64,000 nt of DNA from an uncultured Acidobacteriota bacterium (lineage in GTDB: Bacteria; Acidobacteriota; Thermoanaerobaculia; Multivoradales; UBA5704): assembly GCA_963732005.1 (NCBI GenBank), contig CAVSXT010000005.1, forward strand, positions 2,057,315 through 2,121,314, written 5' to 3'. This document shows positions 1-50,729 of this stretch, piece after piece (position 1 is the stretch's first letter; each line of letters starts with the position of its first letter). The position numbers were made by a program, and so were the translations under genes. The notes below the pieces were generated by a model, which was given only the letters and a program-made list of their open reading frames with translations, did not search any database and was not told where the DNA came from.

Positions 1-274
1 CTGACGGCGTGAAGCCCAGCATGCAACGCAGGACGACAAGGCAGATTGGCTGCTGGAGGGCGGCGGCGAGCACCGCCTCGGGGTCGAACTCCCTGAAGCC
101 GTGGGTGGCCATCTTGAGCCGCTCGTAGCCGTTCTCGAAAGCCGGGAACTCGACGAAGCCAGGACCCTTCGGCAGGATGAGGAAGTCCGACTCGAGGCTG
201 TCGATCACCACGGCAGCGAAGGCGTCGAGGTCCGCGGCCACCTCGGCGAAGGGCACTTCAAATGGGAACGTCAT
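1..274 (-). CDS. Hypothetical protein, partial (3' part lies outside the window); the gene immediately downstream of the DUF1156 methyltransferase
   Basis: Minus-strand reading frame from ATG (complement of 272-274), MTFPFEVPFAEVAADLDAFAAVVIDSLESDFLILPKGPGFVEFPAF..., with very high GC3 and no stop before position 1. It is missing from the ORF track because it runs off the edge. Its start overlaps the methylase stop by about 17 nt. Confidence 0.45.
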   Translation of the reverse strand, partial: MTFPFEVPFAEVAADLDAFAAVVIDSLESDFLILPKGPGFVEFPAFENGYERLKMATHGFREFDPEAVLAAALQQPICLVVLRCMLGFTPS

Positions 275-2435
275 CTTGCAAGGGGGCTCCGAGTTTGGTG
301 CCGATCTCGAACAACGGGCCGAGGGAGGGCTCGGCGCGGGCGTGCGCCTCGAGGGCAGCGGCGAGGATCGCTGAGGGATCCCAGCCGGCCACGGCGACCT
401 CAACGGCGGCGAGCTTCTCCGTCACCGGGCGTGTGGCGTCCCAGCTTTTTCGTAGGTTCCAGATCACCAGGCGGACGACGTGGCCGAAGACCACACAGCG
501 GACGTCTCCTGCCGTGACCTGAACGCCCCCCTCTGCGAGGCCGCGGAGGTCTTCGAGGACGAGGCTCACAATCGCCTCGCGAGAGCGGGCCAGCGTCCTT
601 TGGGGTGTTGCACCGGTGACGCGGCAGACGAAGACCGTGTCGACCGTCGAGGAGCCGGTGCCGCTGATGTGGATGGAGGCACCCATCTCGCCTGGGCACG
701 GCAACGCCGCAGTGCAGGCGAAGCGCGCGTCGAGAAGGCCGACCGCCACCGGGAAGTAGGCATCGACTCGATTGTGGTGGTAGGTGAAGACAAGCGGCGC
801 ACCCGACCTGAGTGCCCTGGCCATGCGCTGGAAGACTGCCGAAAGGCCGGCTGTGAAGTGCGGAAGCCCACGCTCGAGCGTCTCGTTGCCGGTCAGCTCA
901 TCGGCGTTGCGGGTCGAGGCGCCGCGGAAGGCCGCGTGTTGCTTGCCGACGAGTTTCCGCAGCCAGACGTAGCAAAAGTCCATCAGTTCGGCGTACTGGA
1001 CGTTCTGGAAGTAGGGCGGGTCGGTGAGGACCGCGTCGAGGCTCCCCGGCCGCAGCCGCGCACTCGTCGCGGTCGCGCAACGCAGGCTGACCTGGCGGCC
1101 GCCGTTGCCGATCGATTCGCCGCGGATCGGGACGACGGTCTTGCGTGAGGACTCGTGAAAAATCTCGAAGGGTTGGACGCAGAAGGACTTCGCGCGGACG
1201 TACTTCTCGACGATGTTCGACCAGCCGCCGCTGCCGACGACCGCTCCGCCGCCGTTGGTGATCCCGAGGAGGTTCGACTCGCAGGCGATGAGGCCCACTG
1301 GGAAGCCGTGGACTGAGAAAATGTCGAGCGACTTTAGGGCCATCGTATCGTAACGGCACAGCAGGTTTTGGTACCGGAGGAGGTCGGACAGGTTGGTGGC
1401 TAGTGCTTCACGTACCAACTTATCCCTCAGTGCCGCAATGCCACGCGCGCTGAGCTCCAGGCCGAGAAGCTGCCTTGCGTTGAACATCTCGCGATAGCGC
1501 CGGTAGCCCCAGCGGTGGAGTCGGTCGGTTTCGTCGCCCGATGGAATCTCGTCGTTTGGCACATAGCGCAACCGCGTGTGTCCGAGGCGAGCCGCTGCCT
1601 CTGTGTAGCGGTATAGATCCTCCGCGTCCGGGCGCTTGAAGAAGCGGCCAGTGTGCTCGCCGCGGCAGGAGTGGCAGTGATACTCGATAGCGAACATGCG
1701 GTGGCCGAGCGGGTTTTTGCCGTCGGGAAACTTCACGACGCTCCCGCAGGCCGGGCAAGCGCACGAGCCGCGGCGCGCCGGCCCACCGACGCGGAGAGCG
1801 GTGTGGCAAGTGCGGCAGGTACCGGGGGTCCTTCGGTCGACGACTTCGTTGAGCTCGCCACACGCGGCGCAGGCGAGAACGTTTCGCGGATGCCGCACGT
1901 TCTCCGCTACGAGATATCCGGGAAAGAGGTCCACCAGCGTAGAGCAGACGGCGCAGGGCGCCTGTTTCACCCAGAGCCAGTACTTCACCTCTGCGAGGCC
2001 CGCGCAGAGGTGACAGCTCGTCTGGTAGAGATGTCCCAGCTCCTGCCTGAGCTTTGCTACCAGCTCGACGCTCGCGGCGCGATAGGCTGCGGGGTTGAGC
2101 GGGGCGAGTTCCTGGCGAACGATCCACCAAGCCATTGGGTTGATGTCGAAGCCGACGACGTCGCACCCGATGCGGTTTGCCTCAAGGAGCGGCGTGCCAC
2201 CGCCCATGAAGGGGTCGGCAACTCGCTTACCGCGGTGATCGTTCGCGCGGTAGAAGGTCTCGCGCAGGGAACCCTCGCCGAATTCCGCGAGGAGGAGGGC
2301 GCGGAAGAGGGTGCCGGGGCGTCGCGCGAACCACTTGTGAACGGCGATGATTGGGCGGTAGCTTTGCTGGATCTGCTTCTCCCGAAGAGCCAGGTTCGCC
2401 ACGAAGGCGACGTCGAAGCGCCGCTCGATAGACAT
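258..2435 (-). CDS. DUF1156-family DNA methyltransferase (N6-adenine/N4-cytosine type, DPPY motif)
   Basis: Motif I-like DPFMGGGTPLLEANRIGCDVVGFDINP and motif IV LTDPPYFQNVQY. The N-terminus MSIERRFDVAFVANLALREKQIQQ...WFARRPGTLF is typical of DUF1156. Start chosen at the internal ATG (complement of 2433-2435); the ORF is open up to 2711 but the extension is Pro/Arg-rich and probably not translated. Confidence 0.8.
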   Translation of the reverse strand: MSIERRFDVAFVANLALREKQIQQSYRPIIAVHKWFARRPGTLFRALLLAEFGEGSLRETFYRANDHRGKRVADPFMGGGTPLLEANRIGCDVVGFDINPMAWWIVRQELAPLNPAAYRAASVELVAKLRQELGHLYQTSCHLCAGLAEVKYWLWVKQAPCAVCSTLVDLFPGYLVAENVRHPRNVLACAACGELNEVVDRRTPGTCRTCHTALRVGGPARRGSCACPACGSVVKFPDGKNPLGHRMFAIEYHCHSCRGEHTGRFFKRPDAEDLYRYTEAAARLGHTRLRYVPNDEIPSGDETDRLHRWGYRRYREMFNARQLLGLELSARGIAALRDKLVREALATNLSDLLRYQNLLCRYDTMALKSLDIFSVHGFPVGLIACESNLLGITNGGGAVVGSGGWSNIVEKYVRAKSFCVQPFEIFHESSRKTVVPIRGESIGNGGRQVSLRCATATSARLRPGSLDAVLTDPPYFQNVQYAELMDFCYVWLRKLVGKQHAAFRGASTRNADELTGNETLERGLPHFTAGLSAVFQRMARALRSGAPLVFTYHHNRVDAYFPVAVGLLDARFACTAALPCPGEMGASIHISGTGSSTVDTVFVCRVTGATPQRTLARSREAIVSLVLEDLRGLAEGGVQVTAGDVRCVVFGHVVRLVIWNLRKSWDATRPVTEKLAAVEVAVAGWDPSAILAAALEAHARAEPSLGPLFEIGTKLGAPLQDDVPI

Positions 2436-2700
2436 GGCAGACCGGGGTTCAGGAGAGCGCTTTGGCATGGCTGCGGCCGATGGCGCAAGTATAGCGTAAG
2501 ATGGGCGCCGCAGGTTGACGCGGGTGCCCGCGGCCGTCAGCAGGGCTGGTACCCGACTCTGCCGAAGCCGTGCAAGCCTAGAGGTGGACGCCGCCGGGTG
2601 GGGAGCCGGCAGCGGACGAGGCGGGCCGGGCGACCATGGGATACTGGAACGCGGCGGCGCGCCATGGCTCCACGGTTGCGAGGGCGCCGCCCACCTCTCC

Positions 2701-3666
2701 ATGAAAGCCATCGTCTACCGCGTCTACGGTCCGCCCGATGTCCTCGAATTGGCGGAGATCGAACAGCCGGCCGCCGGCGCCGACGAGGTCCTGATCGAGG
2801 TGCGCGCCGCCGCCGTCAATCCGCTGGACTGGCACTACATGCGAGGCATCCCGTATTTCATTCGGCTGCTGGCCGGCCTGCGCCGGCCGAAGATCACGCG
2901 ACTGGGCGTCGACGTGGCCGGCCGGGTCGAGGCGGTGGGTGTGAACGTCACGCGATTCAAGCCGGGCGACGAGGTGTTCGGCGGCTGCCGGGGGGCCTTT
3001 GCCGAGTATGCGTGTGCCGCCGAGCGGGCGTTGGCGATGAAGCCGGGGAACCTCACGTTCGAGCAAGCTGCGGCGGCGCCGGTGGCGGCATACACCGCCC
3101 TGCAGGGCCTTCGCAACCACGGACGGTTGCAGCCGGGGCAGCAGGTCCTGATCAACGGCGCGGCGGGAGGGGTGGGCACGTTCGCCGTGCAGATCGCCAA
3201 GTCGTTCGGCGCCTTGGTGACCGGTGTCTGCAGCGCGGGGAATGCCGGCATGGTCCGATCCCTCGGCGCGGACGAGGTGACCGATTATTCGCAGGAGGAT
3301 TTCACCAAGAGCGGCAAGCGTTACGACCTGATCCTCGACGCCGTCGGCAACCATCCGTTGCTGGCCTGCAGGCGCGCCCTGCAGCCCAAGGGGATCTACG
3401 TGATGGTCGGCGGGTCGGGAGGATTGATCGGGACGCTGGCTCGTGCGCTCGCGGCCGTCGTGCTGTCGCGGTTGGTGAGCCAGGACCTGCTCATGATGCT
3501 GACCAAGCCAAGCCAGGAGGACCTGACCATCATCCGCGAGCTGATGGCGGCCGGCAGGGTGACGCCGGTCATCGACCGGCGCTACGGCTTGAGTGAGGTC
3601 CCCGAGGCGATCCGGTATCTGGAAGCAGGACACGCTCGCGGCAAGGTGGTGATCAGCTTGGAATGA
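2701..3666 (+). CDS. Zinc-binding alcohol dehydrogenase / NADPH:quinone oxidoreductase family protein (MDR superfamily)
   Basis: MKAIVYRVYGPPDVLELAEIEQP... and the INGAAGGVGTFAVQIAKSFGA Rossmann motif. ATG at 2701; the long upstream extension in the ORF track is likely non-coding. Confidence 0.85.
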   Translation: MKAIVYRVYGPPDVLELAEIEQPAAGADEVLIEVRAAAVNPLDWHYMRGIPYFIRLLAGLRRPKITRLGVDVAGRVEAVGVNVTRFKPGDEVFGGCRGAFAEYACAAERALAMKPGNLTFEQAAAAPVAAYTALQGLRNHGRLQPGQQVLINGAAGGVGTFAVQIAKSFGALVTGVCSAGNAGMVRSLGADEVTDYSQEDFTKSGKRYDLILDAVGNHPLLACRRALQPKGIYVMVGGSGGLIGTLARALAAVVLSRLVSQDLLMMLTKPSQEDLTIIRELMAAGRVTPVIDRRYGLSEVPEAIRYLEAGHARGKVVISLE

Positions 3667-3691: not shown

Positions 3692-4354
3692 TCACACCCC
3701 GCCGAGTGCGATGCGGCGAAAGGTTTCCGCCAGGAGGTCGCGGAACCTCTCGAGCTGGCCTGGGGTGAGAGGTTTCAGCATCAAGGGTAAGGGGTGAGTC
3801 GGAAACTGCGCGACGAGCCAGGCCAGGACCCCTGGATCGATGCCGGAGTCTTTGCGTAGCGCCCACTCTAGATCTCGCGCCGGCGGGAAGCCGGCCTGGT
3901 CGAGGAAATAGAGATCGACGAGATCGCGGGGTTCGGAACGCGAGAGAATACAGGTCAACTTGCTCGCGCGCAGGTCGGCAAGCGACTCGATCACGATACC
4001 CTCGACCGGCGCTGGCGGCGGCGCGATGTCCGCGACCGGCTCGTAGACGAGGTCGACCTCGACGCTCTGTCCGTCTTGGGTTTCAAGGTGTGCACGAACA
4101 AGGTGGCCGGCGTCGCGGAGCAGCGAGCAGGAAGCCCCGGCCTCATCGGCGGCAGCAGGGAGCAGGCCGACAAGCGCTCGCATTTCCTCGGCATCATGCA
4201 CAAATAGATCGACGTCGCCGGTAGTTCGGTGACCAAGGTACGCCCCGGAGAGAGCCGCGCCGCCGCCGAGGTGGCAGGAGCTTCGCGTCTGGCAGGCTCG
4301 CACGAAACCGAGGGCGAAGTCCGGGACCACACGCCGATCGAAGGTGTTACGCAT
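3692..4354 (-). CDS. Nucleotidyltransferase, AbiEii/AbiGii-like toxin family (type IV TA-like)
   Basis: GGGAALSGAYLGHRTTGDVDLFVHD nucleotidyltransferase-fold motif in a protein of about 220 aa. Start at the internal ATG (complement of 4352-4354), which overlaps the stop of the upstream small gene. Confidence 0.65.
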   Translation of the reverse strand: MRNTFDRRVVPDFALGFVRACQTRSSCHLGGGAALSGAYLGHRTTGDVDLFVHDAEEMRALVGLLPAAADEAGASCSLLRDAGHLVRAHLETQDGQSVEVDLVYEPVADIAPPPAPVEGIVIESLADLRASKLTCILSRSEPRDLVDLYFLDQAGFPPARDLEWALRKDSGIDPGVLAWLVAQFPTHPLPLMLKPLTPGQLERFRDLLAETFRRIALGGV

Positions 4355-4700
4355 GGCGCACAAGGTCCTGACGCAATGGGGGCCACTGCGGCCGCGGCAG
4401 CTGCAGCAGCCAGGCCCACATCGACCGTGAGCGTCCCAGGTACCGGATGAGGAGCGGCCAGAGCGCGCGAATCTCGTCGGCGTTGACGAAGAGCCAGACG
4501 TCCCGGGTGTTCGCTTCTCGCAGCAGAGCTCCCATCCAATAAGCGCGCGCCTCCGGATCCGGGGAGGCAAGGTGCTCCTTGAGCTGCGCGACCGTGGCGC
4601 CCGTCCACCAGAGAAAGTAGGGCCTGGCTGTATCGTCAAGGAGTGCCGCCGTCGTCGGTGGCAGACGATCGGTGGGCGCTGAGGATTTCGAACTGCTCAT
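4347..4700 (-). CDS. Small protein upstream of, and overlapping, the NTase toxin gene; a putative cognate antitoxin-like partner
   Basis: 118-aa ORF (MSSSKSSAPTDRL...WLFVNADEIRALWPLL) whose stop overlaps the NTase start. No recognisable family; the role is inferred only from position. Confidence 0.4.
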   Translation of the reverse strand: MSSSKSSAPTDRLPPTTAALLDDTARPYFLWWTGATVAQLKEHLASPDPEARAYWMGALLREANTRDVWLFVNADEIRALWPLLIRYLGRSRSMWAWLLQLPRPQWPPLRQDLVRHA

Positions 4701-4772
4701 CGGAAGAATCCTGCCCCGGAAGGACCCTACCACGGCGGCGACTCTACCGGTCGAGCCTCCCGGCGAGCGGCT

Positions 4773-5324
4773 TCAGGTCTGGGCGAGGGCGTTGAGCTTC
4801 AGGATCGTGGTCCAGTTGCGGCTGGTCGCGGCGTCGCGGAGAGCCTTGCCGAAGCTGATCGCCAGCGGGCTGGCGAGGAGTCCCTCGTGGCACCAGAGAT
4901 AAGCCGCGCGCTCGCCGGCCGCCAAACGGTCCGGCGCCCAATCCTGACCGAGCAAGGGCTCCAGGCGCTGTCGGTCCGAGCGGTCGTTGAGGATGGCGAC
5001 GAGCAGGCGCGCGGGGTCGCCGGCGACGTCGAGCAGGGGATTGGCCGCGACGACGGCGGCGAGCTCTGCGGCCGTCAGCACGGTCACCCGAGAAGCGACT
5101 CCGAGACGCGCGACCAGCGATTCCTCGATGCGCGCGGCGACATCCTTGGCGCCGCCCTTGGCGCCGCCCGGCGCGGTGAACACGACGTTGCCGCTGTTGA
5201 GCAGCGTCCGCACGTCGCTGTAGCCCAGGCTCTCCACCGCCGCGCGCAGATCCGCCATCGCGATCCGCTTGGCCTTGCCGACGTTGATGCCGCGCAAGAA
5301 CGCCACGTGTGTGCTCGCCGGCAT
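4773..5324 (-). CDS. DUF1697 family protein
   Basis: N-terminal MPASTHVAFLRGINVGKAKRIAMADLR matches the DUF1697 signature; ATG start verified. Confidence 0.8.
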   Translation of the reverse strand: MPASTHVAFLRGINVGKAKRIAMADLRAAVESLGYSDVRTLLNSGNVVFTAPGGAKGGAKDVAARIEESLVARLGVASRVTVLTAAELAAVVAANPLLDVAGDPARLLVAILNDRSDRQRLEPLLGQDWAPDRLAAGERAAYLWCHEGLLASPLAISFGKALRDAATSRNWTTILKLNALAQT

Positions 5325-5352
5325 GGTCGTCCCATGCTAACACCAGGCGAGA

Positions 5353-6669
5353 TCAGGCGGGACCGCGGAGGCGCGCCAGACCGAAGAAGGGGTCGGGCCG
5401 GCGGCGGCCGAGGACGGTCTCGGCGACCTGCTGTCCCCAGGCGGGCGCGAACTTGAAGCCATGCCCGGAGCCGCCGCCGACCAGCCAGGCGTTGGCGGCC
5501 TCGGGATGGCGGTCGAGCACGAAGTTCTGATCGGGGGTGTTCTCGTACTGGCAGACGCGGGTCTCGACCAGCGGCGCGCCCGCCAGCGCCGGAAAGCGCC
5601 GGTCCAGCAGGGCACGAGCCCGCGCCAGCGCCTCGGGAGCCACGGTGCGCTCGCCGCCGGTCGGATCGAACGCCGGGCCGCGCGTGTCGTCGGCCACCTT
5701 GAAGCCCCGCCGCTCGTTGCCGGGGATGCCGTAGAACAGCCGCTCGCCCACCTCGATCCACACCGGCATCGCCGGCGGCTCGAAGCGCGGATCGCCGGCC
5801 GGGGTGCCGAAGAAGAAAACCTCCTGCTTGGTCGGCGCGATGCTGGCGCCGAGCACGCCGGGGAACAGCGCTCCGAGCCAGGGGCCGCAGGCGAAGACGT
5901 AGGCGTCGGCGCTCACCCGCGAGCCGTCGCTCAGGCGCAACGCCTGCATGCGGCCGGCGGCGACGGCCCCGGGCTCGACCCGCGCCAGCCGCATCTCGCC
6001 GCCGGCGGCGATCAGCGCCTCGACCGCGGCGGCGCACGCCTGCCGCGCCAGCAGGAAGCCCGCCCGCTCCTCCCACAGCGCCCAGCGCACGCCCGCGAAG
6101 GAGATCTGGGGAAAGCGCCGCGCCGCCTCGGCGGTCTCGAGGCGATGGTAGGGAAAACCCACCGCCCGCAGGTTCTCGGCCGCCTTGGCGACGAAGTCGG
6201 AGCCGTCCGCCACCATCCAGAGGGCCCCCGTCGGGTGAAAGAAGGTGCGGCCGGTGAGCCGCTCGAACTCCGCCCAGCGCTCGAAGGCCCTGGCCGCCAG
6301 CTCGACGTAGACCTTGTCGGCATAGACGGCGCGCAGCACCCGGGTCTCGCCCCCCGAGCTGGCGCGCGAGTTCCCCGGACCCCAGGCGTCGAGCAGCGTC
6401 ACCCTGGCTCCCAGCCGCCGCAGCGCCAGCGCGGTGAAAGCGCCAAAGGCGCCGGCGCCGACCACCGCGATCGTCGGCGCCGTCGCGGCGGGCGAGGTGC
6501 TCGCCGCTGGCTCGCCGGCCGCCGCCGGAGCTGCCTCCGGAGTCGCCGCCGGGGCCGCCGGCCGCGCCTTGGTATCCTCGCCACCCGCCGCAAGCCCGGG
6601 CACCAGCGTCGCCGCGGCGAGCCCTCCCAGCAGCGAGCGCCGCGATAGCTCCTGCGATCGGTCAGCCAT
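5353..6669 (-). CDS. FAD-dependent oxidoreductase (DAO family; sarcosine/glycine oxidase-like) with a Tat signal peptide
   Basis: Tat motif SRRSLLGGLAAA, dinucleotide-binding IAVVGAGAFGAFTA, and a DAO-like C-terminus. Start at the internal ATG (complement of 6667-6669). Confidence 0.8.
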   Translation of the reverse strand: MADRSQELSRRSLLGGLAAATLVPGLAAGGEDTKARPAAPAATPEAAPAAAGEPAASTSPAATAPTIAVVGAGAFGAFTALALRRLGARVTLLDAWGPGNSRASSGGETRVLRAVYADKVYVELAARAFERWAEFERLTGRTFFHPTGALWMVADGSDFVAKAAENLRAVGFPYHRLETAEAARRFPQISFAGVRWALWEERAGFLLARQACAAAVEALIAAGGEMRLARVEPGAVAAGRMQALRLSDGSRVSADAYVFACGPWLGALFPGVLGASIAPTKQEVFFFGTPAGDPRFEPPAMPVWIEVGERLFYGIPGNERRGFKVADDTRGPAFDPTGGERTVAPEALARARALLDRRFPALAGAPLVETRVCQYENTPDQNFVLDRHPEAANAWLVGGGSGHGFKFAPAWGQQVAETVLGRRRPDPFFGLARLRGPA

Positions 6670-39726: not shown

Positions 39727-40962
39727 CTAGGCCGGTCCGGCGGCGGGCGAGGCAGTCGGCAGCTCCCCCGGGCGCGGCGGGCGGGGCGGGTGCGGTGGTT
39801 GGGCGCCGGCCCCGCGCTGGGCGGCTAGCGCCAGGATGGTGAGGTAGGCGAAGGCGGCGACGGGCACCAGGAACGCCAGCCGCACACCGTGGTGGTCGGC
39901 GACCAGGCCCATGAGCGCCGGCAGCACCGCTCCGCCGACGATCGCCATGCACATCAGGCCGGAGAGCGCGCCGGTCCGCTCGGGGCGGCTTTCGACGGTG
40001 AGCGCGAAGACCAGCGGCCAGACGTTGGCGAAACCCAGGCCGCAGGCGGCGATGCCGGCGAGCGCCAGCGGCCGCGAACCGAGCAGGAGCAGCCCGAGCC
40101 CGCCGAGGCCCAGCAGCGCCGAGACCAGGAAGAAGCGGCGGGCGCCGATGAAGCTCAGCACCGCCGCGCCCAGGAGGCGTCCGGCGGCGAGCGCGAGGAA
40201 GAACAGGCCGGGGCCGAAGCGGGTTGCCGACGAGGCCAGATCCATGTCGAAGGCGCGGGCGAGCAGGGTGGCGAGCCAGGAGTTGAGCCCCACCTCGGCG
40301 CCGACGTAGAGGAAGATGCCGAGCACGGCAAGCGCCACCGGCGGCTGGGCGAGCAGGGCGAGGCTGCTGGCGACGCCGGCCGGGGTCTCGTCGGCGTGGG
40401 ACTCGGCGACCGGCACGGCTGCGACGAGCAAGAGGGTGAGCAGCGTCACGCCGGCGAACACCGGAAAGATGTGGTACCAGGCAAATCCCAGCACCACCAG
40501 CTGCGCCGTGAGGTAAGGACCGGAGATCGAGCCCAGGCTCTTGACGAACTGGGCGAAGGTGAGATTGCGGGCATAGCGCCCCGGGGCGCTGACGTCGCGC
40601 ATGATCGGGTTGCCGGCCACCTGCAGTGCCGCCATGCCGGCGCCGATGAGGAAGATGGCGCCGAGCAGCAGCCCGTAGTGCGCCACGGACAGGCAGGGGA
40701 TCAGCTGCCCGGCGAGCACCACGGCAAGCGACGCCGTCATGAGGAACTTCCTGCCGCGGCGATCGGCGACCACTCCGGCGGGTACCGAGAACAGCGCGAA
40801 GGCGATGAAGCCGAAGAACGGCAGCAGCCCGGCCTGGGCGCCGCTGAGCTGGAACTCCCGCTCCGCGAAGCCGACCAGGGTGCCGACGGCGTCGACGAAC
40901 CCCATGACGAAGAAGCCCAGGAAGATGGGGAGTGTCCGGAATCGCAGGCGACACCTCCGCAA
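39727..40962 (-). CDS. MFS transporter (FucP / glucose-galactose transporter-like)
   Basis: 12-TM MFS topology; FLGFFVMGFVDAVG N-terminal motif. Probable TTG start (complement of 40960-40962), and the start is uncertain. 13 nt upstream of the ROK kinase gene. Confidence 0.7.
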   Translation of the reverse strand: MRRCRLRFRTLPIFLGFFVMGFVDAVGTLVGFAEREFQLSGAQAGLLPFFGFIAFALFSVPAGVVADRRGRKFLMTASLAVVLAGQLIPCLSVAHYGLLLGAIFLIGAGMAALQVAGNPIMRDVSAPGRYARNLTFAQFVKSLGSISGPYLTAQLVVLGFAWYHIFPVFAGVTLLTLLLVAAVPVAESHADETPAGVASSLALLAQPPVALAVLGIFLYVGAEVGLNSWLATLLARAFDMDLASSATRFGPGLFFLALAAGRLLGAAVLSFIGARRFFLVSALLGLGGLGLLLLGSRPLALAGIAACGLGFANVWPLVFALTVESRPERTGALSGLMCMAIVGGAVLPALMGLVADHHGVRLAFLVPVAAFAYLTILALAAQRGAGAQPPHPPRPPRPGELPTASPAAGPA

Positions 40963-41215
40963 AGGTCCGGCGGGAGAGCAGTCTGGATCATACAGGAGGG
41001 GGGTGGGCTGGGAGGGGTGGCGGGGCGGCGGCGGCCCGGGTGCGGGGCCTCGGGATCTCCGGATGCAGCGCCTCGAGGCAGCGGGTTGAGGCAGCGGGTT
41101 GGTTGTGCGTATACTCGGCTCCGCTCCCGGGGAGGGCAGGAGGAGCGGGGATCGGCCCTTTTCCGGCCGTCGCACCCGCAAAGCCCCCGGCGAGTTCTCT
41201 TTGCAAGCCCCAATT

Positions 41216-41302
41216 GGAGGTGTGGCCGAGTGGACAATGGCAGCAGACTGTAAATCTGCCGGGCTAAGCCCTACCTAGGTTCGAATCCTAGCGCCTCCAC
41301 CA
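41216..41302 (+). tRNA. tRNA-Tyr (anticodon GTA), with encoded CCA
   Basis: GGAGGTG acceptor arm paired with CGCCTCC; anticodon loop CTGTAAA; long variable arm CGGGCTAAGCCCTACC; T-arm CTAGG-TTCGAAT-CCTAG; 3' ACCA. Confidence 0.9.
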
Positions 41303-41630
41303 ATGGAATCAATGAATTAGAGCGAGAAGCTGCCGGCTCCATACGCTGCAGTTGGACCAAATCTGGCCACTTAGGAAATTTTGCCGATGGTCTCGAGCGG
41401 TGCATCGGCCGCGGTGGCAAGGTCACCTGGTGGGGGGCCGCATTCCCTTGATGGATCGGGAAGAGTAAGTCGGCGACCATCGCCGGCAGCACCGATAGCC
41501 GACCTCATCGACCGCCGGGACGCGGTGTGCGCAGTGGCGATGCAGCCGGCACTGGAGGGCGGAGGTACCTTCCTGCACGACAAGGTCGCTTGGCGCGCGC
41601 CGCGGGCAAGCGCCGCGGCGCGCGTGGTGG

Positions 41631-42515
41631 TCAGAAGCGAGCAGGGGGACAATGAGGGATCAGCGTGGTAGCGAGCGGCCCGCAATCAGTGACATCGGGC
41701 CACGGGAGCAACGTGCCAGGCGTCGTGCAGAGCCGGTGGAAGTGAAGGAAGTGCATCTCAGCCTGCGCGGGCCCCCCGGTTGAAGCACCGAGCGTCGAGA
41801 GCGGGATGTTGACGAGCCAGGCCTCGACATCGTTGCCTCCTGTCGTCAAGGTGATGTTGCCTTTGTTGCTCTGGAAGACCACCTGCTGGCCAGCCGAGAT
41901 CGTTATGGTCACCTTGACGACGTCGGCAATAGCCCTCCTGGTAACGACGCTGATGTTCTTGTTCATCATGTCGGCATAGTACCAACGGACGATCAAACCG
42001 CTGCCCGAAGCGAGCTGATCCGTCGACCAGGTGCCGTTCATGACCCACAATCGAGCCGAAGCGAGGCCGGCGGGGAAGGCGTTAGCCGTGACCTCCGGCA
42101 GCAGCGGCTGTCCAGGATTCGCGTCGGCCATGTTGCAGGTCCAGCCGAAATGGGTTTTGGGTTCGGCGGGAGACAGGCACGGTCCTACCACGGGAGCAGG
42201 CAAGGGAGTCGCTGCTGCACTTACCGGCGACACTCCGATGTCCTCCTCATCGAGAGGGAAGGCGATGAGAGCATCCTTGGCGAGATTCTGCGCCGGTGGA
42301 ATGTAGAGCCAGTTCTGGCGTGCAGTGGCAATCTGCCCCGGCGGCAGGGCTGGCAGGCACAGCATGGGGGTGTGGCGGTCCGGCGAGCCGATCGGAAGGG
42401 GTTGGCCGGAGGTGTCGTAATCGTAGGCATTGGGCAAGACGATGACGACGCTCTGGCCGGCGGCTGGCACGCACGCGCAGAGTCCGGTCACGTAGAGGTT
42501 CAGATTAAAGGTCAT
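41631..42515 (-). CDS. Hypothetical protein translationally coupled to the CHAT-domain protein (ATGA overlap)
   Basis: ATG (complement of 42513-42515) preceded by AAGGAGG at 7-nt spacing. The CHAT ORF stop overlaps this start. No family recognised (MTFNLNLYVTGLCACVPAAGQSVVIVLPNAY...). Confidence 0.6.
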   Translation of the reverse strand: MTFNLNLYVTGLCACVPAAGQSVVIVLPNAYDYDTSGQPLPIGSPDRHTPMLCLPALPPGQIATARQNWLYIPPAQNLAKDALIAFPLDEEDIGVSPVSAAATPLPAPVVGPCLSPAEPKTHFGWTCNMADANPGQPLLPEVTANAFPAGLASARLWVMNGTWSTDQLASGSGLIVRWYYADMMNKNISVVTRRAIADVVKVTITISAGQQVVFQSNKGNITLTTGGNDVEAWLVNIPLSTLGASTGGPAQAEMHFLHFHRLCTTPGTLLPWPDVTDCGPLATTLIPHCPPARF

Positions 42516-45500
42516 CGCGAGATCCTCCTTTCGGTGGTGGCCACCTGGAACAATTGAAATCCGCCCCACGCTGCGACCTCGTGCAATACGGGGTCGCGTC
42601 CGTGCAGCAGCTCAAGTTGGGTGTTGCGAAGAGCCGCGGCCGGGCCTTCGGCGGAGCGGAGGCGGCGATAGAAGCGTGCGAAAAACTGCTCGGCGGAGGC
42701 GTCGTCGACGCTTCCCAGCGCCGCCACTACGGCAGGTACGCCGGTGGCTAGAAAGGCCTCGACCAGGCCGCGCGAGCCTTCGGTATCTTGGCTGCCGGCG
42801 GCCCGGCAGGAGGAAAGCACCACGAGTCGCGTGCGGCCGGCCGCAAGGCGTCGAATGTCGCCGGCGCTCAAGGCCACCTTGTCCTCAGTGCTGGCCCGCG
42901 CGAGGGGCAGGAGAGAGAGGTCCGGCTGCTGGTCATCGGCGAGCACATGCGCGGCCAAGTGCACGATTGCAAATCGACCGAAACCGCGGGAGAACGCGGC
43001 GGCGGTTGCGTCCTGGCCGAGGCTGAGAACTGAGTTGGGGCGGTAGAGATCGGCGATCGCAGTGGCCTCTCGCCGGGCGCTGGGGAGCGGTTCCAGAAAG
43101 GAGAAGATCGCTGCGTCCAGACGAGGGTCTCCCAGCACGAAGGCGCTTGCGAGCGCCTGCCCCGAAGTTGCACCCCTCGGATCGGCCAATGCCGCGCTGG
43201 GTACGATCACCACTTCATGGTCGGCGACGAGCGGTTGTCCTGCCGGGCCGGCCAGTGCCGCGAAGGGGACGCGGCGCAGGCTCTTGTCAGGGGAGACGAG
43301 CAATGTGGTGACACCGAAAATGTCAGGAGCGATGGGATCGATCAAGACCGAAGAGAGCTTGCGCAGTGCCTCACGCGCGTCCTGCGGGCCAGAGTCCAGG
43401 AATTGCACCCAGGTTTCTAGGTCCGCGGCCGCGATGGACTCGATGTGGAAGCGAATGCGACCCTTGGTCATCACCCAGATTAGCAGCTGGTGAGGGAGCA
43501 CGGCGAACTCGACGAGAGCCCGTGCGCGATCCAGGCGATGCGTCAGGCCAGCGTCGGCCGCGGGGAGGTGGAGGGTGTCGCGCAGGGCGCGGGCGCGCGC
43601 TTCGTCGGCAATCGCAAAGAGGGCCGCCGGGGTCGCATGGGCCTCGATCGAGGTGGACATCCACTGGTCATAGACGGTGCGCGACTGAGAGAGGAAGGCA
43701 GTGCGAGACTCTCCAGCGTCGAGATGGACGCGTTGCGCCTCGACCTCCAGTAGAGCCTTGTGCAGCGACGCGGCTGCCGCAGCGCTATCGTGATTCGCGG
43801 TTTGGGCGAAGGCGAGCTCGGTCAGAAAATGGATCAGGCGCACCGCATCGTGCAAGGCTTGTGCGACGGCGGTTGCGCGCGCCAGCTCGGTAGCGGCTTT
43901 CACAGGAGCGGTTTTGAGGAGCAGATGCCCGCGCTCGGTCCAGATGTCCGCCAGCCATTGTCGGCGAGAGTCCGGATCGGCAAGCGCCGCGGCGGCGCCT
44001 TCAGCGGCCTTGAGATCCTGTAGAGCGCTCGCCTTACGACCGAGCGCCGCCCGTGCCCGTGCGCGGGTCAAGAGAGCGTACGCAGCTCCCGCCTGCCCGA
44101 GCGAGGGGCCCGATCGCTCAACGAGGCGGTCGGCGAACGCCAGCGCAGCGTGGGGAAGATTTGAGTCCTGCGCTGCCTGGCAAAGAGTCGCATAGGCGAC
44201 GATGAGGCGCCGCGGGTCGCCCGCCTGTACCGCAAGGCGACTACCCTGGTATAGCCAGGGCCATGCTGCAGGCCGTTGACCCAGGAGCCACAGGCTCTCG
44301 TAAAGGTTGAGAGCCACGCCCGCGCGCTCGGCCAGCGCACCCGAGTGCTGCGCAAGCACTTGGGCGTCATGGTAGTCGCGCAAGCAGTCGCCATTGCGTC
44401 CGGAATGGCTGAGGCTGGCACCTCGCAGCCAGAGCAGGCGCAGGCGGAGCGACGGGTATCGCCCGTGTAGGTCGCGATCGAGGGCCGTCAGGATGGTTAT
44501 GGCGCTGCCGAAATGGCCGCTCTGATAGGCGCAGAGGCCGCGGCCATACTCTGCCCACCAGGCGAGTGCCGGGACCGTGCGAGCCAGCTGCCGTGCAGCA
44601 GGCACAAGCAGCGCCTCCCCTCGTTTGCCCTCGTTGACCTGACAGGTTGTCAAGCCTGCCGCCACCTGGCTTACGCTGCGGGCAAGCGAAGGCAGGCGGC
44701 GAGGCTCTGCCTGGCGCAGGAGCGCCGTCGCCTCGACAAGCATGGAATCCGAGCAGCAGGCGGCTACACTCTGGCCGATACGCGTCATGAGGTCGAGGAG
44801 CCTGGCGGCAGCAGCGTCTTGGCCGCGCTGCACGGCTTCGGCCCAGCGGGGCAGCAGCCGCTCCTCGGCGAGCTTGCGCATCTCGCGCGGGAAGCTGGAG
44901 ATGAGGACGTTCGCTTCGGCGCAGGGCAATGGACAGGCCTCGAATCGCGCGAGTGCTGAGGGCCAGGCCGCCGTTGGATCCCCGGCGAGGCCTCGTGCGC
45001 CGACAGCGCCGTCGGTGAGCGAGGGTGACACCGCTTCCGGAGCAGCGAGGAAAGCGGCGTGCAGTGCGAGAGTCCAGTTGACTCTTGCCTCGGGCAGGAG
45101 AGGCGAGAGTTCGAGCGCTGTCTCGATTGCATCGAGCGCTGCAAGGCGCCCGGGGCCGTCCAACGCCGTGAGGTGAGTGAGATAAAACGCTCCGAGGTCA
45201 TTCAGGATGCACGCGTTGCGCGGACTCATGGCTGCGGCGTGTCTGAGAGCTGCCTCGGCCAGACGGTGATGTCCAAGTACCGCGCGCGCGACGCCAAGGT
45301 CGGCTAGCGCGTCCGCGCTTGGCGCTTGTGTCGCCCGCCGCTCGATGGCGTGTAGGGCGGCGATCTCGGAGCCGGTGGCAGGTGCCACGAGCGCGCCGGC
45401 GGCGAGCGGTTCAGCGAGCACCCCGCCAGCGAACCAAGGCCCTGAAGCCAGCGGACGAGCAAGGGCATCTCGGAGTCGTGCCCGCTCGGTGGAGCAGCTC

Positions 45501-45544
45501 GACCAGGGGGCGACAGTGACCTGCCTGCAGGCAGTGCCGGGCAC
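42512..45544 (-). CDS. CHAT-domain (caspase-like peptidase) protein with a long helical/TPR-like N-terminal region
   Basis: C-terminal CHAT domain IVHLAAHVL...LVVLSSCRAAGS...GLVEAFLATGVPAVVAALGSVDD with a His/Cys dyad. GTG start at the ORF track position; the true start is uncertain. Confidence 0.75.
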   Translation of the reverse strand: MPGTACRQVTVAPWSSCSTERARLRDALARPLASGPWFAGGVLAEPLAAGALVAPATGSEIAALHAIERRATQAPSADALADLGVARAVLGHHRLAEAALRHAAAMSPRNACILNDLGAFYLTHLTALDGPGRLAALDAIETALELSPLLPEARVNWTLALHAAFLAAPEAVSPSLTDGAVGARGLAGDPTAAWPSALARFEACPLPCAEANVLISSFPREMRKLAEERLLPRWAEAVQRGQDAAAARLLDLMTRIGQSVAACCSDSMLVEATALLRQAEPRRLPSLARSVSQVAAGLTTCQVNEGKRGEALLVPAARQLARTVPALAWWAEYGRGLCAYQSGHFGSAITILTALDRDLHGRYPSLRLRLLWLRGASLSHSGRNGDCLRDYHDAQVLAQHSGALAERAGVALNLYESLWLLGQRPAAWPWLYQGSRLAVQAGDPRRLIVAYATLCQAAQDSNLPHAALAFADRLVERSGPSLGQAGAAYALLTRARARAALGRKASALQDLKAAEGAAAALADPDSRRQWLADIWTERGHLLLKTAPVKAATELARATAVAQALHDAVRLIHFLTELAFAQTANHDSAAAAASLHKALLEVEAQRVHLDAGESRTAFLSQSRTVYDQWMSTSIEAHATPAALFAIADEARARALRDTLHLPAADAGLTHRLDRARALVEFAVLPHQLLIWVMTKGRIRFHIESIAAADLETWVQFLDSGPQDAREALRKLSSVLIDPIAPDIFGVTTLLVSPDKSLRRVPFAALAGPAGQPLVADHEVVIVPSAALADPRGATSGQALASAFVLGDPRLDAAIFSFLEPLPSARREATAIADLYRPNSVLSLGQDATAAAFSRGFGRFAIVHLAAHVLADDQQPDLSLLPLARASTEDKVALSAGDIRRLAAGRTRLVVLSSCRAAGSQDTEGSRGLVEAFLATGVPAVVAALGSVDDASAEQFFARFYRRLRSAEGPAAALRNTQLELLHGRDPVLHEVAAWGGFQLFQVATTERRISR

Positions 45545-45732
45545 CGCAAATGCCGCAAGCAGACAGACCCAGCGAATGAGACTGGTCAGATCAGCCTCCT
45601 GTAAAACGACAGCCCGAGTCGCTGCGCGGAGCGGAAGGGGCGGAGATGTTTGGCGTCCACCGTTCTTCTCCTCTGACGTGCTTAGACGGCCGTGCCGGCG
45701 TTTTTTCGCGGGTGCGGCGCGCAGACCTCTGA

Positions 45733-47199
45733 CTACGGCTCCCTGACAACGAAAAAGAACGGGTCAATGGATGGCTGCACGGGGTAACCTGCGAGGTCCG
45801 TCAGGACATGCCGTTTCCAGTCGACGTTACGTAAATACCTGACCTTGACGTGCTTGGGGATCTTGGTGGGGTCAGGGTTGTTATAGGCGGAGAAGATGCC
45901 GTAGAAATCCTTCCCGACTGCGATCAGGTGGTCGTAATCGCCGAGCGTGTTGTTGCCTTGGCAGGAGCCTGGAACATCCTGCGTGTTCGCCAGCATTTCG
46001 TGGACGGCTGGCGCGGTAGCGAAGCGGTTGTCCGAGATCTCGATGTGGGTTTCCCAGTAGTGGCTACCAGGAGTGCCGGTAAGCTTCTGGTAGAGGAAGC
46101 CGACCTGCCCCAGGTTGTTGACCGCAAGCGCCGGATTGGTAGCAGCGACGACCTGCCGTAGATCATGACTCCATCGGGCACCGCCGTCATACGAGGAGCG
46201 GAGATGCAGAGTGAAGGTGTCAGCGGTGGTGCCGTCAGCCCAGGCGATGTATAAAATCTTGCTCTTGCCTCGCCGCGGATCGACGGCGAGCGCGAGGTTG
46301 CCGCGGACCCTCTGAGTGCCGAGATACAGGTTGGGGAGCGAGATAGCGACAGCGCAAGCCGCGCAGACGCCGGGGACACCTCCCGCGCTAATTGCCTGAT
46401 AGGGATTCGATGCAGCCCCCCAGGCGTCGTCTCTGACGACGATCACATCGGCGATCGCGGGAGGTATGCACGACCTCGGATGCAAGAAGGCCAGGTACAC
46501 AGTGCCGTTAGGATGAATCGCCGGACGAATGGAAGTGCCGTCCATGCACCCGAGGGTCCGGGCATCGAGAGATAGGGGGCCGACAAAGTTGTCCAGCGGC
46601 GGGGCTTTCGCCGCGTCGAGTGATTGCTCGACGGCCGCTGACCGGTAGTAAGGTGCATCGAGGTTGTTGTAACCTACGTAAACGCGGTCGACGCCAGGGT
46701 TCAGGGCGGTCGCCTCCTCGACGTCGGGCTGGTCGCCGTCTTGGATCTGGATGAGATCGGTCATCGCGCCAGGCGCCAGTAAGTTGACCTGGCGTAGCAG
46801 GTCGACCTTCTTGTTGTCGTTACGCAGGATGCCCGCGTAAAGAACGCCAGAGGTTTGGGAAAATCGCAAGGTGATGTCGCACATGGCGGACCCGCCCGGC
46901 AAGACGCCCGGCAAGACAACGTTGAGAAGCCAGGTCATGCCGCCGTCGGTCGAGACGAAGATCGGCGCCTCGCTCGATTCGAGAGGGTCGGGTGTTAGGG
47001 CAGATGCTGCCATCTGAAGAGGGTTTGCCGGGTTGACCGCGATGCTCGGCTCGGCGTCGCAGTTGGATTCTCCACTTAGAGACCGCGGGATGACGTCGAC
47101 CACCTGGATCGTCGGAAGATGAGCACAGTGCAGCCCGAGCAGACTCAGAAGGAGGAGCAACCAGTTCTGCGGTGCCGCGAGAGGCGAGGGCCTCGTCAT
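45733..47199 (-). CDS. Secreted BNR/Asp-box repeat protein (sialidase-fold-like)
   Basis: Signal peptide MTRPSPLAAPQNWLLLLLSLLGLHCAH and Asp-box motifs STDGGMTW and SYDGGARW. Confidence 0.65.
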   Translation of the reverse strand: MTRPSPLAAPQNWLLLLLSLLGLHCAHLPTIQVVDVIPRSLSGESNCDAEPSIAVNPANPLQMAASALTPDPLESSEAPIFVSTDGGMTWLLNVVLPGVLPGGSAMCDITLRFSQTSGVLYAGILRNDNKKVDLLRQVNLLAPGAMTDLIQIQDGDQPDVEEATALNPGVDRVYVGYNNLDAPYYRSAAVEQSLDAAKAPPLDNFVGPLSLDARTLGCMDGTSIRPAIHPNGTVYLAFLHPRSCIPPAIADVIVVRDDAWGAASNPYQAISAGGVPGVCAACAVAISLPNLYLGTQRVRGNLALAVDPRRGKSKILYIAWADGTTADTFTLHLRSSYDGGARWSHDLRQVVAATNPALAVNNLGQVGFLYQKLTGTPGSHYWETHIEISDNRFATAPAVHEMLANTQDVPGSCQGNNTLGDYDHLIAVGKDFYGIFSAYNNPDPTKIPKHVKVRYLRNVDWKRHVLTDLAGYPVQPSIDPFFFVVREP

Positions 47200-47250
47200 G
47201 ATGATCTCTCGTGTCACGAAAGTGCGTCGGGCAGAAGGCCGGCGTGTCGA

Positions 47251-48078
47251 TCAGTTGGTCTGAACCGCGATGATCGAGCGGATCTGCTCGAGCCGGTCCA
47301 GCGACAGGACATCGAGTTCGTCAAGGGCCGTCAGTCCGAGTAGGTGCAGCACCGGCATCCCTCTCTCCTTTTGGTCGCGCTGCAAGATCAGGATCTGCAC
47401 GGTTCCTGTGCGCAACTTGGGTGAGGCCCGCCACAGCAAGTCCGTGCTGTTGGGAAAGAGGACGTGCAAGGCGGACGGCGGCTCGCCCATAAGGACGGAG
47501 TGGACTTCGATCGTAGCCACCCACCAATCGGGGTCGTGCTCAGCGATGAGGGGCGGGGCGCCGTATGACGACGCGGGGCAGGTCGCCTTGACGGTACCTA
47601 CGACGATAAGCTGGGCGCGGGCGACGCGATCGCGGAGCTGGGCGGCGAACGCCCTGTTCTCGGCATCGCGGATCCGCGCTGGAAGGCTCGCGCCCTCCGT
47701 GGGGTTCATGTGGTATATCTCAACTACGGCCAAGGTGTCGCCGAAGAGCCAGCTGCGAGTCAAGAAGATCGCGGCATCTCCGATTTTGAGGAGCGAGTCG
47801 CCCTTGAGCCTCACGGTGACGCGTTTTCCTTTCAGGGAATAGTATGGCCCCGCCACTGGCCGATAAACTTGGTCTACTTGGATCACCGCTGTACGAGAGT
47901 CGACGGGGAAGGCCGGTTCGGTCGCAGTTCCAATTGCCTTCACGGTGCCTTGGAATATGAACTGCGACCGGCTCAGCAGCGCATCAAGACCTTGGGCGCC
48001 CGCGAGCGCGGAAAGAGAAAGAGCCAAGGTGCCGAGGAGCGAGAGCTGGCGTGCTGTTGAGCAGCGTGACACCGCCAT
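47251..48078 (-). CDS. Secreted hypothetical protein
   Basis: Internal ATG followed by the signal peptide MAVSRCSTARQLSLLGTLALSLSALAGAQG. No family recognised. Confidence 0.5.
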   Translation of the reverse strand: MAVSRCSTARQLSLLGTLALSLSALAGAQGLDALLSRSQFIFQGTVKAIGTATEPAFPVDSRTAVIQVDQVYRPVAGPYYSLKGKRVTVRLKGDSLLKIGDAAIFLTRSWLFGDTLAVVEIYHMNPTEGASLPARIRDAENRAFAAQLRDRVARAQLIVVGTVKATCPASSYGAPPLIAEHDPDWWVATIEVHSVLMGEPPSALHVLFPNSTDLLWRASPKLRTGTVQILILQRDQKERGMPVLHLLGLTALDELDVLSLDRLEQIRSIIAVQTN

Positions 48079-48398
48079 CGTTCGCCCCCGCGCTCGACTC
48101 CTGGATTGTGGGGCACCCATGCGAGTCTCCGATGGCGACGGCCGTGAGTGTCGCGGGGCCGGAGAGGGGCGGATGCTCAGTCTGCCCCGATGGTGGAAGA
48201 GTCTACGAGGCAGTCCGACTGAGGGCAAGCATTTTGATGCATTGCGATATCGACAAATGAGGTGGTTCTTACAGTCCGGATCGGCGGTGGAGCAGGAAGG
48301 CGAGGCTGCCATAGGCGCTCACTTCGATCGCTCAAGGAGGCGATCGATGAAGAAATGCGGCAGCGTGCACGGCGACGCCATTTGCGAGGAAAATAACC

Positions 48399-48782
48399 AT
48401 GCCCGACAGAACCAAGAAGACCCCAAGAGCGAACACCACTGTGAAGAGCGAAGAGCGGAACCTGTTTCGCGAATTGATGTCTGGCGTGAAGGCGATGCAG
48501 CAACACCGCGAAGGGCGACTCACCTTGCGGAGCCACCACGTCCTGCCGATCACGCTTCCTCCCTTGAATCCGCAGCTCGTGCGCGACACGCGTGAAGCGT
48601 TGCACATGTCACGACAGGTGTTTGCGTTGAAGCTGGGCGTGAAGCCCCGCACGCTCGAACGCTGGGAGCAAGGACGTAGCAAACCAAACGAGCAGGCGGC
48701 AGCACTGATCTGGTTGGTGCGGAAATATCCGGACACTCTCGAGCGTATCGAGTCCCTGAGTGTTGGTGAGAGCAAGGCCTGA
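48399..48782 (+). CDS. XRE-family HTH protein, COG2944/HigA-MqsA-like antitoxin-type regulator (no cognate toxin identified)
   Basis: TREALHMSRQVFALKLGVKPRTLERWEQGRSKPNEQAAALIWLVRKYPDTLERI is characteristic of this antitoxin family. The start is uncertain (no Shine-Dalgarno sequence at 48399). Confidence 0.6.
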   Translation: MPDRTKKTPRANTTVKSEERNLFRELMSGVKAMQQHREGRLTLRSHHVLPITLPPLNPQLVRDTREALHMSRQVFALKLGVKPRTLERWEQGRSKPNEQAAALIWLVRKYPDTLERIESLSVGESKA

Positions 48783-48820
48783 ATGAGTGAGGGTTGCGGG
48801 CATGAGCGCGGCCGTGGCCT

Positions 48821-49879: not shown

Positions 49880-49907
49880 GAGCACCCACGGACGGCGTCG
49901 CCGGCCC

Positions 49908-50729
49908 TCAGGAGATCGTCGTGACATGCGGTTGGAGCAGACCTGCGATCGTCCCCTCGAGCGCCAGCAGCGGCGGCCGGCCCGCCTCGCGATGCCGCCG
50001 CCGCGCCTCGACCAGCGAGGCCAGCAGCGCATCCTCGGCGGTGTTGAGATTGAGATGGATCTCGCGAAACTCGAGGGCCTCGGCCCGCGCCCCGCGAGCG
50101 AGCAGCCACGACAGCAGATCGCCGAGATGCGGGTGGCGCCGCACCAGGTCGGGCGGCACGCCGTCGAGCAGCCCGGCGCCGAATCCCACGCAACCGCACC
50201 AGCGGGTGCTGCCGGCCAGCTGGCCGGCGGCCGGCTTCTCGCGCACGCTCAGCACGCGGCCGGCAGCGTCGGTCACCACGTTGCACAGGATCCTGTGCGA
50301 CTCCGAGTCGCGCACGACGCCCACCAGCAGATCGGGCGCCGCCGCCCGCCCGGCCAGCGCGCGGAACGGCGACGAGTCTTCGTAGTACTCGTCGCCGAGG
50401 AGCACGAGCGCCGCATCTCCTGCCAGCCACGGCGCCAGCGACAGCAGGCCCAGGATCGGACCGAGGGGCTCGGCTTCGGCCACGCAGGAGATGGTCACTC
50501 CCGTCGGCGGCGTGTAGAGGGCGAGCGCCGAGCGCACGCTGCCGGCGAAGGTCGCCGAGGTCGCAACCAGGATCTCGGCGACGCCCGCCTCGGCACACTG
50601 CTCGATCTGGCGCATCAGGAGCGGCTGGTCGAAGACCGGCAGCAGGCACTTGGGCAGCACCTGGCCCAGGGTGCCGAGGCGGGAGCCCCTGCCCCCGGCC
50701 AGGATGACCGCCCGCGGATACGGGACCAT
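49908..50729 (-). CDS. Sugar-1-phosphate nucleotidylyltransferase (NTP_transferase, RmlA/GlmU-like)
   Basis: RAVILAGGRGSRLGTLGQVLPKCLLPV signature. ATG at the complement of 50727-50729 (the TTG called in the track lies 9 nt upstream). Confidence 0.8.
   Translation of the reverse strand: MVPYPRAVILAGGRGSRLGTLGQVLPKCLLPVFDQPLLMRQIEQCAEAGVAEILVATSATFAGSVRSALALYTPPTGVTISCVAEAEPLGPILGLLSLAPWLAGDAALVLLGDEYYEDSSPFRALAGRAAAPDLLVGVVRDSESHRILCNVVTDAAGRVLSVREKPAAGQLAGSTRWCGCVGFGAGLLDGVPPDLVRRHPHLGDLLSWLLARGARAEALEFREIHLNLNTAEDALLASLVEARRRHREAGRPPLLALEGTIAGLLQPHVTTIS

Follow-up and report, generated by a model that had tools for sequence, protein, structure and literature searches.

A putative two-gene Type II-like restriction-modification system with a DUF1156-like methylase in an uncultured Acidobacteriota bacterium

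The window analyzed here is a stretch of 64,000 nucleotides (nt) from an uncultured Acidobacteriota bacterium (assembly GCA_963732005.1, contig CAVSXT010000005.1, positions 2,057,315 to 2,121,314 of the forward strand). Its left edge carries two overlapping genes on the minus strand, a gene for a DNA methyltransferase (methylase) with a DUF1156-like N-terminus and a second gene that leaves the window at position 1. In a first-pass annotation made from the sequence alone, this edge was taken for a probable truncated view of a multi-gene phage-defense system of the kind that contains DUF499-family ATPases, DUF3780 proteins and helicases. Here we describe the two gene products, their homologs and the genomic surroundings of these homologs, and we set out the grounds on which we read the pair as a probable restriction-modification system of two genes. 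The coordinates of the features are collected in Table 1.

The methylase frame on the minus strand spans 2711..258, equivalent to 817 amino acids (aa) at maximum, and gives 725 aa plus a stop codon when read from the ATG at 2435. This ATG is the one chosen at first pass, where the product had been counted as 726 aa; the start holds and the length is 725 aa followed by the stop. The observation that a further 92 codons upstream are open is also correct, although they lack codon periodicity, with a guanine-cytosine (GC) content of 68/74/70% at the three codon positions; the corresponding values for the methylase are 67/49/81%. The homologs in an alignment of 30 diverse members of the clade (alignment A2) begin at the Met equivalent to ATG 2435, with the start consensus “MxIExxFD”, and tblastn matches in related loci with upstream DNA start at query residue 1-3. 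On the other side, a divergent zinc-dehydrogenase gene starts at ATG 2701, and the 817-aa methylase frame would run into it. The flat codon GC, the homolog starts and this clash rule out the 817-aa version, and the 92-codon extension is an accident of the kind common in high-GC genomes. The database protein P0001 is 100% identical to the 725-aa methylase read from ATG 2435.

The methylase belongs to a large and tightly conserved clade (mean column identity 70% in alignment A2), of which more than 100 homologs span 718-740 aa. Its 725 aa are thus the norm of its own clade, and the earlier remark that it is shorter than typical family members is accurate with respect to the ~950-aa DUF1156 methylases of DUF499 systems. 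The family label itself denotes a distant resemblance in sequence: the Pfam DUF1156 model scores 22.6 bits on residues 104-143 of the 817-aa open reading frame (ORF) against a gathering score of 24, so that the resemblance noted at first pass stands and membership does not. The Pfam N6_N4_Mtase model is likewise below its gathering score (21.8 vs 26.7 bits), the NCBIfam equivalog “DUF1156_antiphage” (NF042963) reaches 91 of the 1000 bits set as its cut-off, and the PADLOC HmaB profile is covered in part, with 73 bits.

The core of the methylase has the class-I S-adenosylmethionine (SAM, AdoMet) methyltransferase fold and the C-terminal region is helical. Motif I and motif IV, both invariant in 30 homologs, are spaced by ~390 residues, and the latter contains the DPPY sequence reported at first pass (residues 472-475, window 1022..1011). 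The segment inserted between them contains six CxxC pairs that are invariant (C141/144, 161/164, 189/192, 207/210, 227/230 and 254/257), in a part of the structural model that is beta-strand-rich (residues 138-267); from this cysteine pattern we predict three Cys4 zinc ribbons, presumably zinc-bound, that would form the target-recognition domain. In the solved layout of MtsC, the methylase of the MANTIS system, a central recognition domain separates motif I (241-245) from DPPY (621-624), and the loop 37-58 of MtsC enters the minor groove (PMC12839542; bioRxiv 10.64898/2026.09.23.753747). In our model of the window methylase the predicted local distance difference test (pLDDT) score is <50 at residues 21-40. 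The DUF1156-like segment is thus predicted to be disordered when free and, by analogy with the MtsC loop, may act as a DNA-contacting loop. As the methylase carries DPPY and the related MANTIS DPPY methyltransferases methylate adenine (PMC12839542; bioRxiv 10.64898/2026.09.23.753747), the N6 position of adenine is its likely target by analogy and N6-methyladenine (m6A) probably its product.

The second minus-strand frame is open for 91 codons, from ATG 274..272 to position 2, and its GC of 67/40/88% by codon position shows that this visible part is clearly coding. The first-pass annotation was right to note that the start of this gene overlaps the methylase stop (by 17 nt, as read from the sequence), that it is clearly coding by its third codon positions, that it runs off position 1 and that it is absent from the ORF list, which omits any frame cut off by the end of the sequence. 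The two methylase homologs nearest to that of the window (83% and 78% identity) show an identical 17-nt overlap, behind which follows a gene for 351 or 348 aa whose product carries no Pfam annotation. A search with this downstream protein returned P0123, a 349-aa protein encoded on the same 2,979,791-bp contig as P0001. Because it shares this contig and the window fragment matches its residues 1-91 exactly, P0123 is the full product of the gene cut by the window edge.

Across 30 homologs of P0123 (alignment A1, mean column identity 65%) the residues E212, P242-D243 and E257-A-K259 are invariant, and this E...PD...ExK pattern is the signature of PD-(D/E)XK nucleases. The AlphaFold2 model of P0123 (pLDDT 83.3) has an all-helical N-terminal half of ~200 aa and a C-terminal half in which helix 203-221, strands 244-247 and 252-260, helix 264-282 and strand 293-299 follow in this order; the latter would fit the PD-(D/E)XK core, given one short strand before residue 244 that DSSP left uncalled. 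In a Foldseek search with the model, the sole confident match is BstEII (E-value 2.4e-3, probability 1.00), and the best structural matches are restriction enzymes of the BstEII, NgoMIV, Cfr10I, PspGI and EcoRII-C group. The sub-threshold Pfam matches of family members go to PD-(D/E)XK families as well: TPD in 29/30, EcoRII-C in 16/30 and PDDEXK_11 in 15/30. Judged by motifs and model, P0123 is a putative PD-(D/E)XK restriction endonuclease of 349 aa, and its catalytic activity is presumed from the intact nuclease residues. At threshold, P0123 alone matches nothing in Pfam, and the 91-aa window fragment nothing in NCBIfam or PADLOC; a phage collection held no homolog of P0123, and profile-library scans detected no ATPase domain in the methylase or the endonuclease.

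An invariant “DDGTARDK” stands at residues 263-270 of P0123 (alignment A1), 4-11 residues past the catalytic E-A-K, and may be a specificity determinant. At a similar position, after the catalytic Lys, the NgoMIV/Cfr10I “CCGG family” presumably carries its R-(D/E)-R recognition motif; the P0123 motif has a Lys at its end.

The family comprises >5,500 protein clusters at 90% identity. In a scan of one genome per species, at least 583 genomes, hence at least 583 species representatives, encode the endonuclease. The 80 best loci belong to Desulfobacterota, Acidobacteriota, Verrucomicrobiota, Chloroflexota, Thermotogota, Planctomycetota, Nitrospirota, Bacillota, Gammaproteobacteria, Spirochaetia and one Methanomicrobiales archaeon. 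A methylase homolog lies directly upstream of the endonuclease on the same strand in all of the loci with upstream DNA (81/81), the two genes overlap by 17 or 20 nt in 66 of these 81, and the identities of the two proteins to their counterparts in the window co-vary across loci (r = 0.73). The downstream gene is not a housekeeping gene, in agreement with the first-pass expectation. When all ORFs of ≥100 aa lying ±8 kb around the pair were clustered across the 81 loci, no third conserved gene emerged; ABC ATPases (in 10 loci), sigma-54 activators (in 9) and aminotransferases (in 6) make up the biggest groups. As candidates for a third component, these three, together with glycosyltransferases and WYL regulators, were ruled out as generic families. 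The loci of the two closest relatives (L001 and L002, 83% and 78% identity) have unrelated housekeeping genes on both flanks. The GC content of the pair averages 4 points under that of its flanks and is lower in 48/62 loci; here the values are 65.7% and 72.2%. The strict pairing, the lack of a conserved flank gene and the lowered GC indicate a mobile and complete two-gene unit, and the pair was probably acquired horizontally. The window does show the edge of a putative defense system, as first supposed, and the downstream gene is the functional partner of the methylase, but the module is complete with two genes.

These same flanks bear on the DUF499-centered BREX-related systems, namely Hma (Type-1 BR) and MANTIS (Gao_RL, Type-2 BR) (PMC12839542; bioRxiv 10.64898/2026.09.23.753747), of which the pair could be a cut view if an ATPase, a helicase-nuclease and a DUF3780 protein lay beyond position 1. 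The kinship of the methylases is real: the DUF1156-like N-terminal segment, the group-alpha core, the central recognition insert, DPPY and the helical C-terminal region are common to the window methylase and those of Hma and MANTIS, and the group-alpha layout has also been described for the methylases of DUF499-centered BREX-related systems (PMC12839542; bioRxiv 10.64898/2026.09.23.753747). The HmaB and DUF1156_antiphage models capture the common N-terminus and core in part only. In addition, the content of this genome to the left of position 1 is deduced from relatives, and the nearest plasmid-borne homologs of the methylase, which are haloarchaeal, ~875-890 aa long and 30% identical, have annotated DUF499 genes beside them. 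These neighbors are taken from the annotation of the records themselves, whereas the 81 loci were judged by flank clustering; they indicate that the association of DUF1156 methylases with DUF499 genes, which the first-pass annotation had put forward, does exist, though in another clade, one with longer methylases.

In the clade of the window methylase the expected DUF499, DUF3780 and helicase partners are not borne out. Unlike in Hma and MANTIS, no DUF499-size ATPase gene, helicase gene or helicase cluster is conserved within ±8 kb in the 81 loci, and the closest relatives are framed by housekeeping genes. The PD-(D/E)XK endonuclease stands alone and is not fused to a helicase. The methylase is ~150-240 aa shorter than its DUF499-linked counterparts, which have 875-890 aa on plasmids and profiles of 960-973 positions, and falls far short of the equivalog cut-off. 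Unlike in MANTIS, no small flank gene is conserved, a result of the flank clustering in which the DUF3780 model itself was not run on single flank ORFs. We consider a cut BREX-related system very improbable. As an observation on the haloarchaeal side, a plasmid of Halorussus lipolyticus (L089, 803-15981) carries three separate genes of ~875-915 aa annotated as DUF1156 domain-containing, which surround a single DUF499 gene and a gene for an AAA ATPase within 16 kb, an unusual multiplicity of DUF1156 methylases for one BREX-related locus.

Pairing with unrelated methylases is a classic signature of restriction endonucleases, and it is found among the distant relatives of P0123. A sister endonuclease branch of 365-370 aa, with ~1,600 protein clusters mostly from Actinomycetota, is 28% identical to the P0123 family over nearly the full length; hhalign aligns the two with a probability of 99.8% and an E-value of 2e-27 over 295 columns, and both PD...ExK and GTARDK are kept. 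The order of methylase then nuclease is the same in this branch, but the methylase is unrelated. In all four contexts that were inspected (the Microbacterium plasmid pMspBDGP8A, Cellulomonas (fengjieae), Desulfarculus and Actinomyces (wuliandei)), the sister endonuclease lies directly behind a beta-class N6_N4_Mtase of 297-308 aa (PF01555, 124 bits), the architecture of which is unrelated to that of the 725-aa methylase, and the genes abut or overlap. The endonuclease family has thus swapped its type of methylase and therefore behaves as restriction endonucleases do. In the Desulfarculus locus (L085, 217-1174), genes for a NotI-like protein (weak Pfam match) and for a mismatch endonuclease of the Vsr type precede the sister pair by 3 kb, which suggests a cluster of restriction-modification systems.

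The swap also speaks to the main rival of a Type II reading, in which methylase and endonuclease would form an obligate complex of a Type IIB, IIH or III-like kind and the endonuclease, unable to recognize DNA by itself, would be targeted by the zinc-ribbon domain of the methylase. Such a complex would account for the strict linkage, the overlapping genes and the co-varying identities, for the ~390-aa recognition insert between the methylase motifs and for the unusual conservation of both proteins. However, the sister branch retains the endonuclease in full (columns 37-347), with the helical N-terminal domain, next to a small beta-class methylase that lacks the insert, and the structural neighbors of the endonuclease are autonomous Type IIP/IIF enzymes. 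Chiefly because the endonuclease is kept whole beside a different methylase, we judge an obligate complex to be unlikely.

We therefore favor, with a probability of roughly 80%, the reading that the pair is a self-contained, uncharacterized two-gene restriction-modification system of Type II-like organization. The methylase has an AdoMet-binding motif and a (D/N/S)PP(Y/F) motif, both invariant; a separate adjacent gene encodes an endonuclease with nuclease fold and intact catalytic residues; and no gene for an additional ATPase or translocase or for a specificity subunit is conserved beside the pair. In these respects the pair resembles the classical Type II systems of the BstEII, NgoMIV, Cfr10I, PspGI and EcoRII-C group, and its endonuclease shows the invariant E...PD...ExK and the characteristic nuclease core. 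It differs from this group in that the endonuclease shares no detectable similarity in sequence with any enzyme of solved structure and carries the extra all-helical N-terminal domain, and in that the place of a small orthodox methylase is taken by a DUF1156-like group-alpha protein of 725 aa. In the mechanism we propose, the methylase would be translated first, and the gene overlap suggests a translational coupling through which endonuclease synthesis would depend on the ribosomes finishing the methylase. The methylase would mark the host chromosome, likely with m6A, at the site read by its zinc-ribbon insert and so protect it. The endonuclease, acting independently of the methylase, would cut unmarked incoming phage or plasmid DNA at the same recognition sequence with D243, E257, K259 and Mg2+, and the pair would thereby serve in defense.

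Several points weigh against this reading. Every Pfam nuclease match of the P0123 family is below the gathering score, searches with the single sequence and with the profile found no sequence relative of P0123 in the PDB, and its structural matches are at the level of the fold, with 9-17% identity. No characterized member of either protein family was found in the database searches made here. Identities of ~57-65% across very distant phyla are unusually high for Type II endonucleases and could mean that more than simple restriction constrains the protein. The autonomy of the methylase is assumed, whereas methylation by the related MtsC of MANTIS needs MtsA, MtsB and ATP and fails without the ATPase loader (PMC12839542; bioRxiv 10.64898/2026.09.23.753747). 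Finally, the window ends at position 1, and the completeness of the two-gene unit in this particular genome is deduced from relatives.

The conservation of the endonuclease can also be seen as a sign of a different role, for instance in methyl-directed cleavage, in repair or recombination (as for Hjc, RmuC or CDIN1), or as an addiction toxin held in check by the methylase with no anti-phage function. Its sub-threshold Pfam neighbors lend themselves to this view: besides TPD they include RmuC (6/30 members), and one public record names a family member “C15orf41 family protein”. The similarity to TPD (PF14811, the family of CDIN1/C15orf41) is weak and lies around the helix and the PD motif (residues 200-246); P0123 reaches 13.3 bits, below the gathering threshold of 27 and hence below membership, and the best family member has an E-value of 1.6e-4. 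These sequence matches may remotely connect a family of bacterial restriction endonucleases with the human disease gene CDIN1, whose biochemical function is, to our knowledge, still not established. A different role nevertheless seems very unlikely to us, as a DNA methyltransferase is linked to the endonuclease in all 81 loci of its own branch that include upstream DNA and, in the form of a different methylase, in all four sister contexts, the varied genomic contexts and the GC under that of the flanks are as expected for mobile restriction-modification systems, and the top structural matches are restriction enzymes. Type II systems are themselves known to show addiction behavior, which is no alternative to them.

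Taken as a Type II-like system, the pair is new and uncharacterized and of a kind already known; aside from its breadth, its conservation and the kinship of its methylase, it is an ordinary restriction-modification system. For annotation, it follows that DUF1156-like methylases of this clade are not to be scored as truncated Hma, BREX-related or MANTIS systems, and that the downstream “hypothetical protein” of 349 aa is to be named a putative Type II restriction endonuclease, a correction that concerns thousands of loci in genomes and metagenomes. The family combines unusual conservation with a wide phylogenetic spread, and a single assigned recognition sequence would cover a very large set of genomes. 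A methylase of BREX-related type appears, by comparison with MtsC, to work here without the ATPase that MtsC requires, and the pair offers an ATPase-independent comparator for the ATPase-dependent BREX-related methylases. More speculatively, and in our estimation rather doubtfully, the pair might be a stand-alone offshoot of the BREX-related methyltransferases that shed the DUF499 loader and the helicase and recruited a classical endonuclease, of a family that, among those of prokaryotes, is possibly the one most closely related to the nuclease domain of human CDIN1 (C15orf41). If so, it would be a natural “minimal” counterpart for asking why methylases of the MtsC and HmaB type need an ATPase.

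Table 1. Positions of the features discussed in the text, in window coordinates except for the sister pairs, which are given in the coordinates of their own loci.
Feature	Position	Strand	Basis or remark
Endonuclease gene, 5' part (91 codons, ATG 274..272), continues past position 1	1..274	-	Translation is residues 1-91 of P0123
17-nt overlap of methylase (TGA 260..258) and endonuclease (ATG 274..272)	258..274	-	Read from sequence
DNA methyltransferase gene, 725 aa + stop	258..2435	-	Group-alpha amino-methyltransferase, DUF1156-like N-terminus
Motif IV, predicted catalytic site, D472-P-P-Y475	1011..1022	-	Invariant in homologs
Central insert separating motif I from motif IV, presumed target-recognition domain	1665..2015	-	Six invariant CxxC pairs
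Motif I, AdoMet-binding site, D74-P-F-M-G-G-G-T81 (FMGGG at residues 76-80)	2193..2216	-	Invariant in 30 homologs
FMGGG(T) of motif I, residues 76-81	2210..2193	-	Read from sequence
DUF1156-like N-terminal segment, residues 12-51, with near-invariant “REKQIQQxYRPIIAVHKWFARRPG”	2283..2402	-	Sub-threshold Pfam match and invariant columns
Intergenic region, methylase to divergent dehydrogenase, with the non-coding 92-codon extension	2436..2700	.	No codon periodicity; homolog starts
AbiEii-type nucleotidyltransferase toxin candidate and upstream ORF	3692-4733	-	Pfam 51 bits for AbiEii
1010-aa ORF with C-terminal CHAT protease domain	42512-45544	-	184 bits
Four ORFs near the CHAT ORF	41631-42569, 45733-47217, 47251-48312, 48821-50032	-	No Pfam match
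Sister methylase-endonuclease pairs	L083 4886-6921; L084, L085, L087 ~4100-6110		Endonuclease annotated “hypothetical” throughout

Two further parts of the window deserve mention. The AbiEii-like module and the DUF1697 gene that were noted at first pass near the pair are indeed there (AbiEii at 3692..4639, 51 bits; DUF1697 at 4773..5324, 123 bits). These genes had given the impression of a neighborhood enriched in defense and toxin-antitoxin functions; the AbiEii pair is a module separate from the methylase and endonuclease, with the dehydrogenase gene, of host-like GC, between them. The true start of the AbiEii ORF is probably ATG 4354 (220 aa) rather than TTG 4639. A 128-aa ORF (4347-4733), which has no match in Pfam, NCBIfam or PADLOC, precedes it with an overlap of 8 nt and is a candidate non-canonical antitoxin, and the segment is low in GC (64-68%).

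A second low-GC island lies on the minus strand at ~40000-50000, with 62-68% GC against a background of 72-77%. Its ORFs are co-directional and include the CHAT ORF and the four ORFs near it listed in Table 1, and the island may be another conflict or defense locus.

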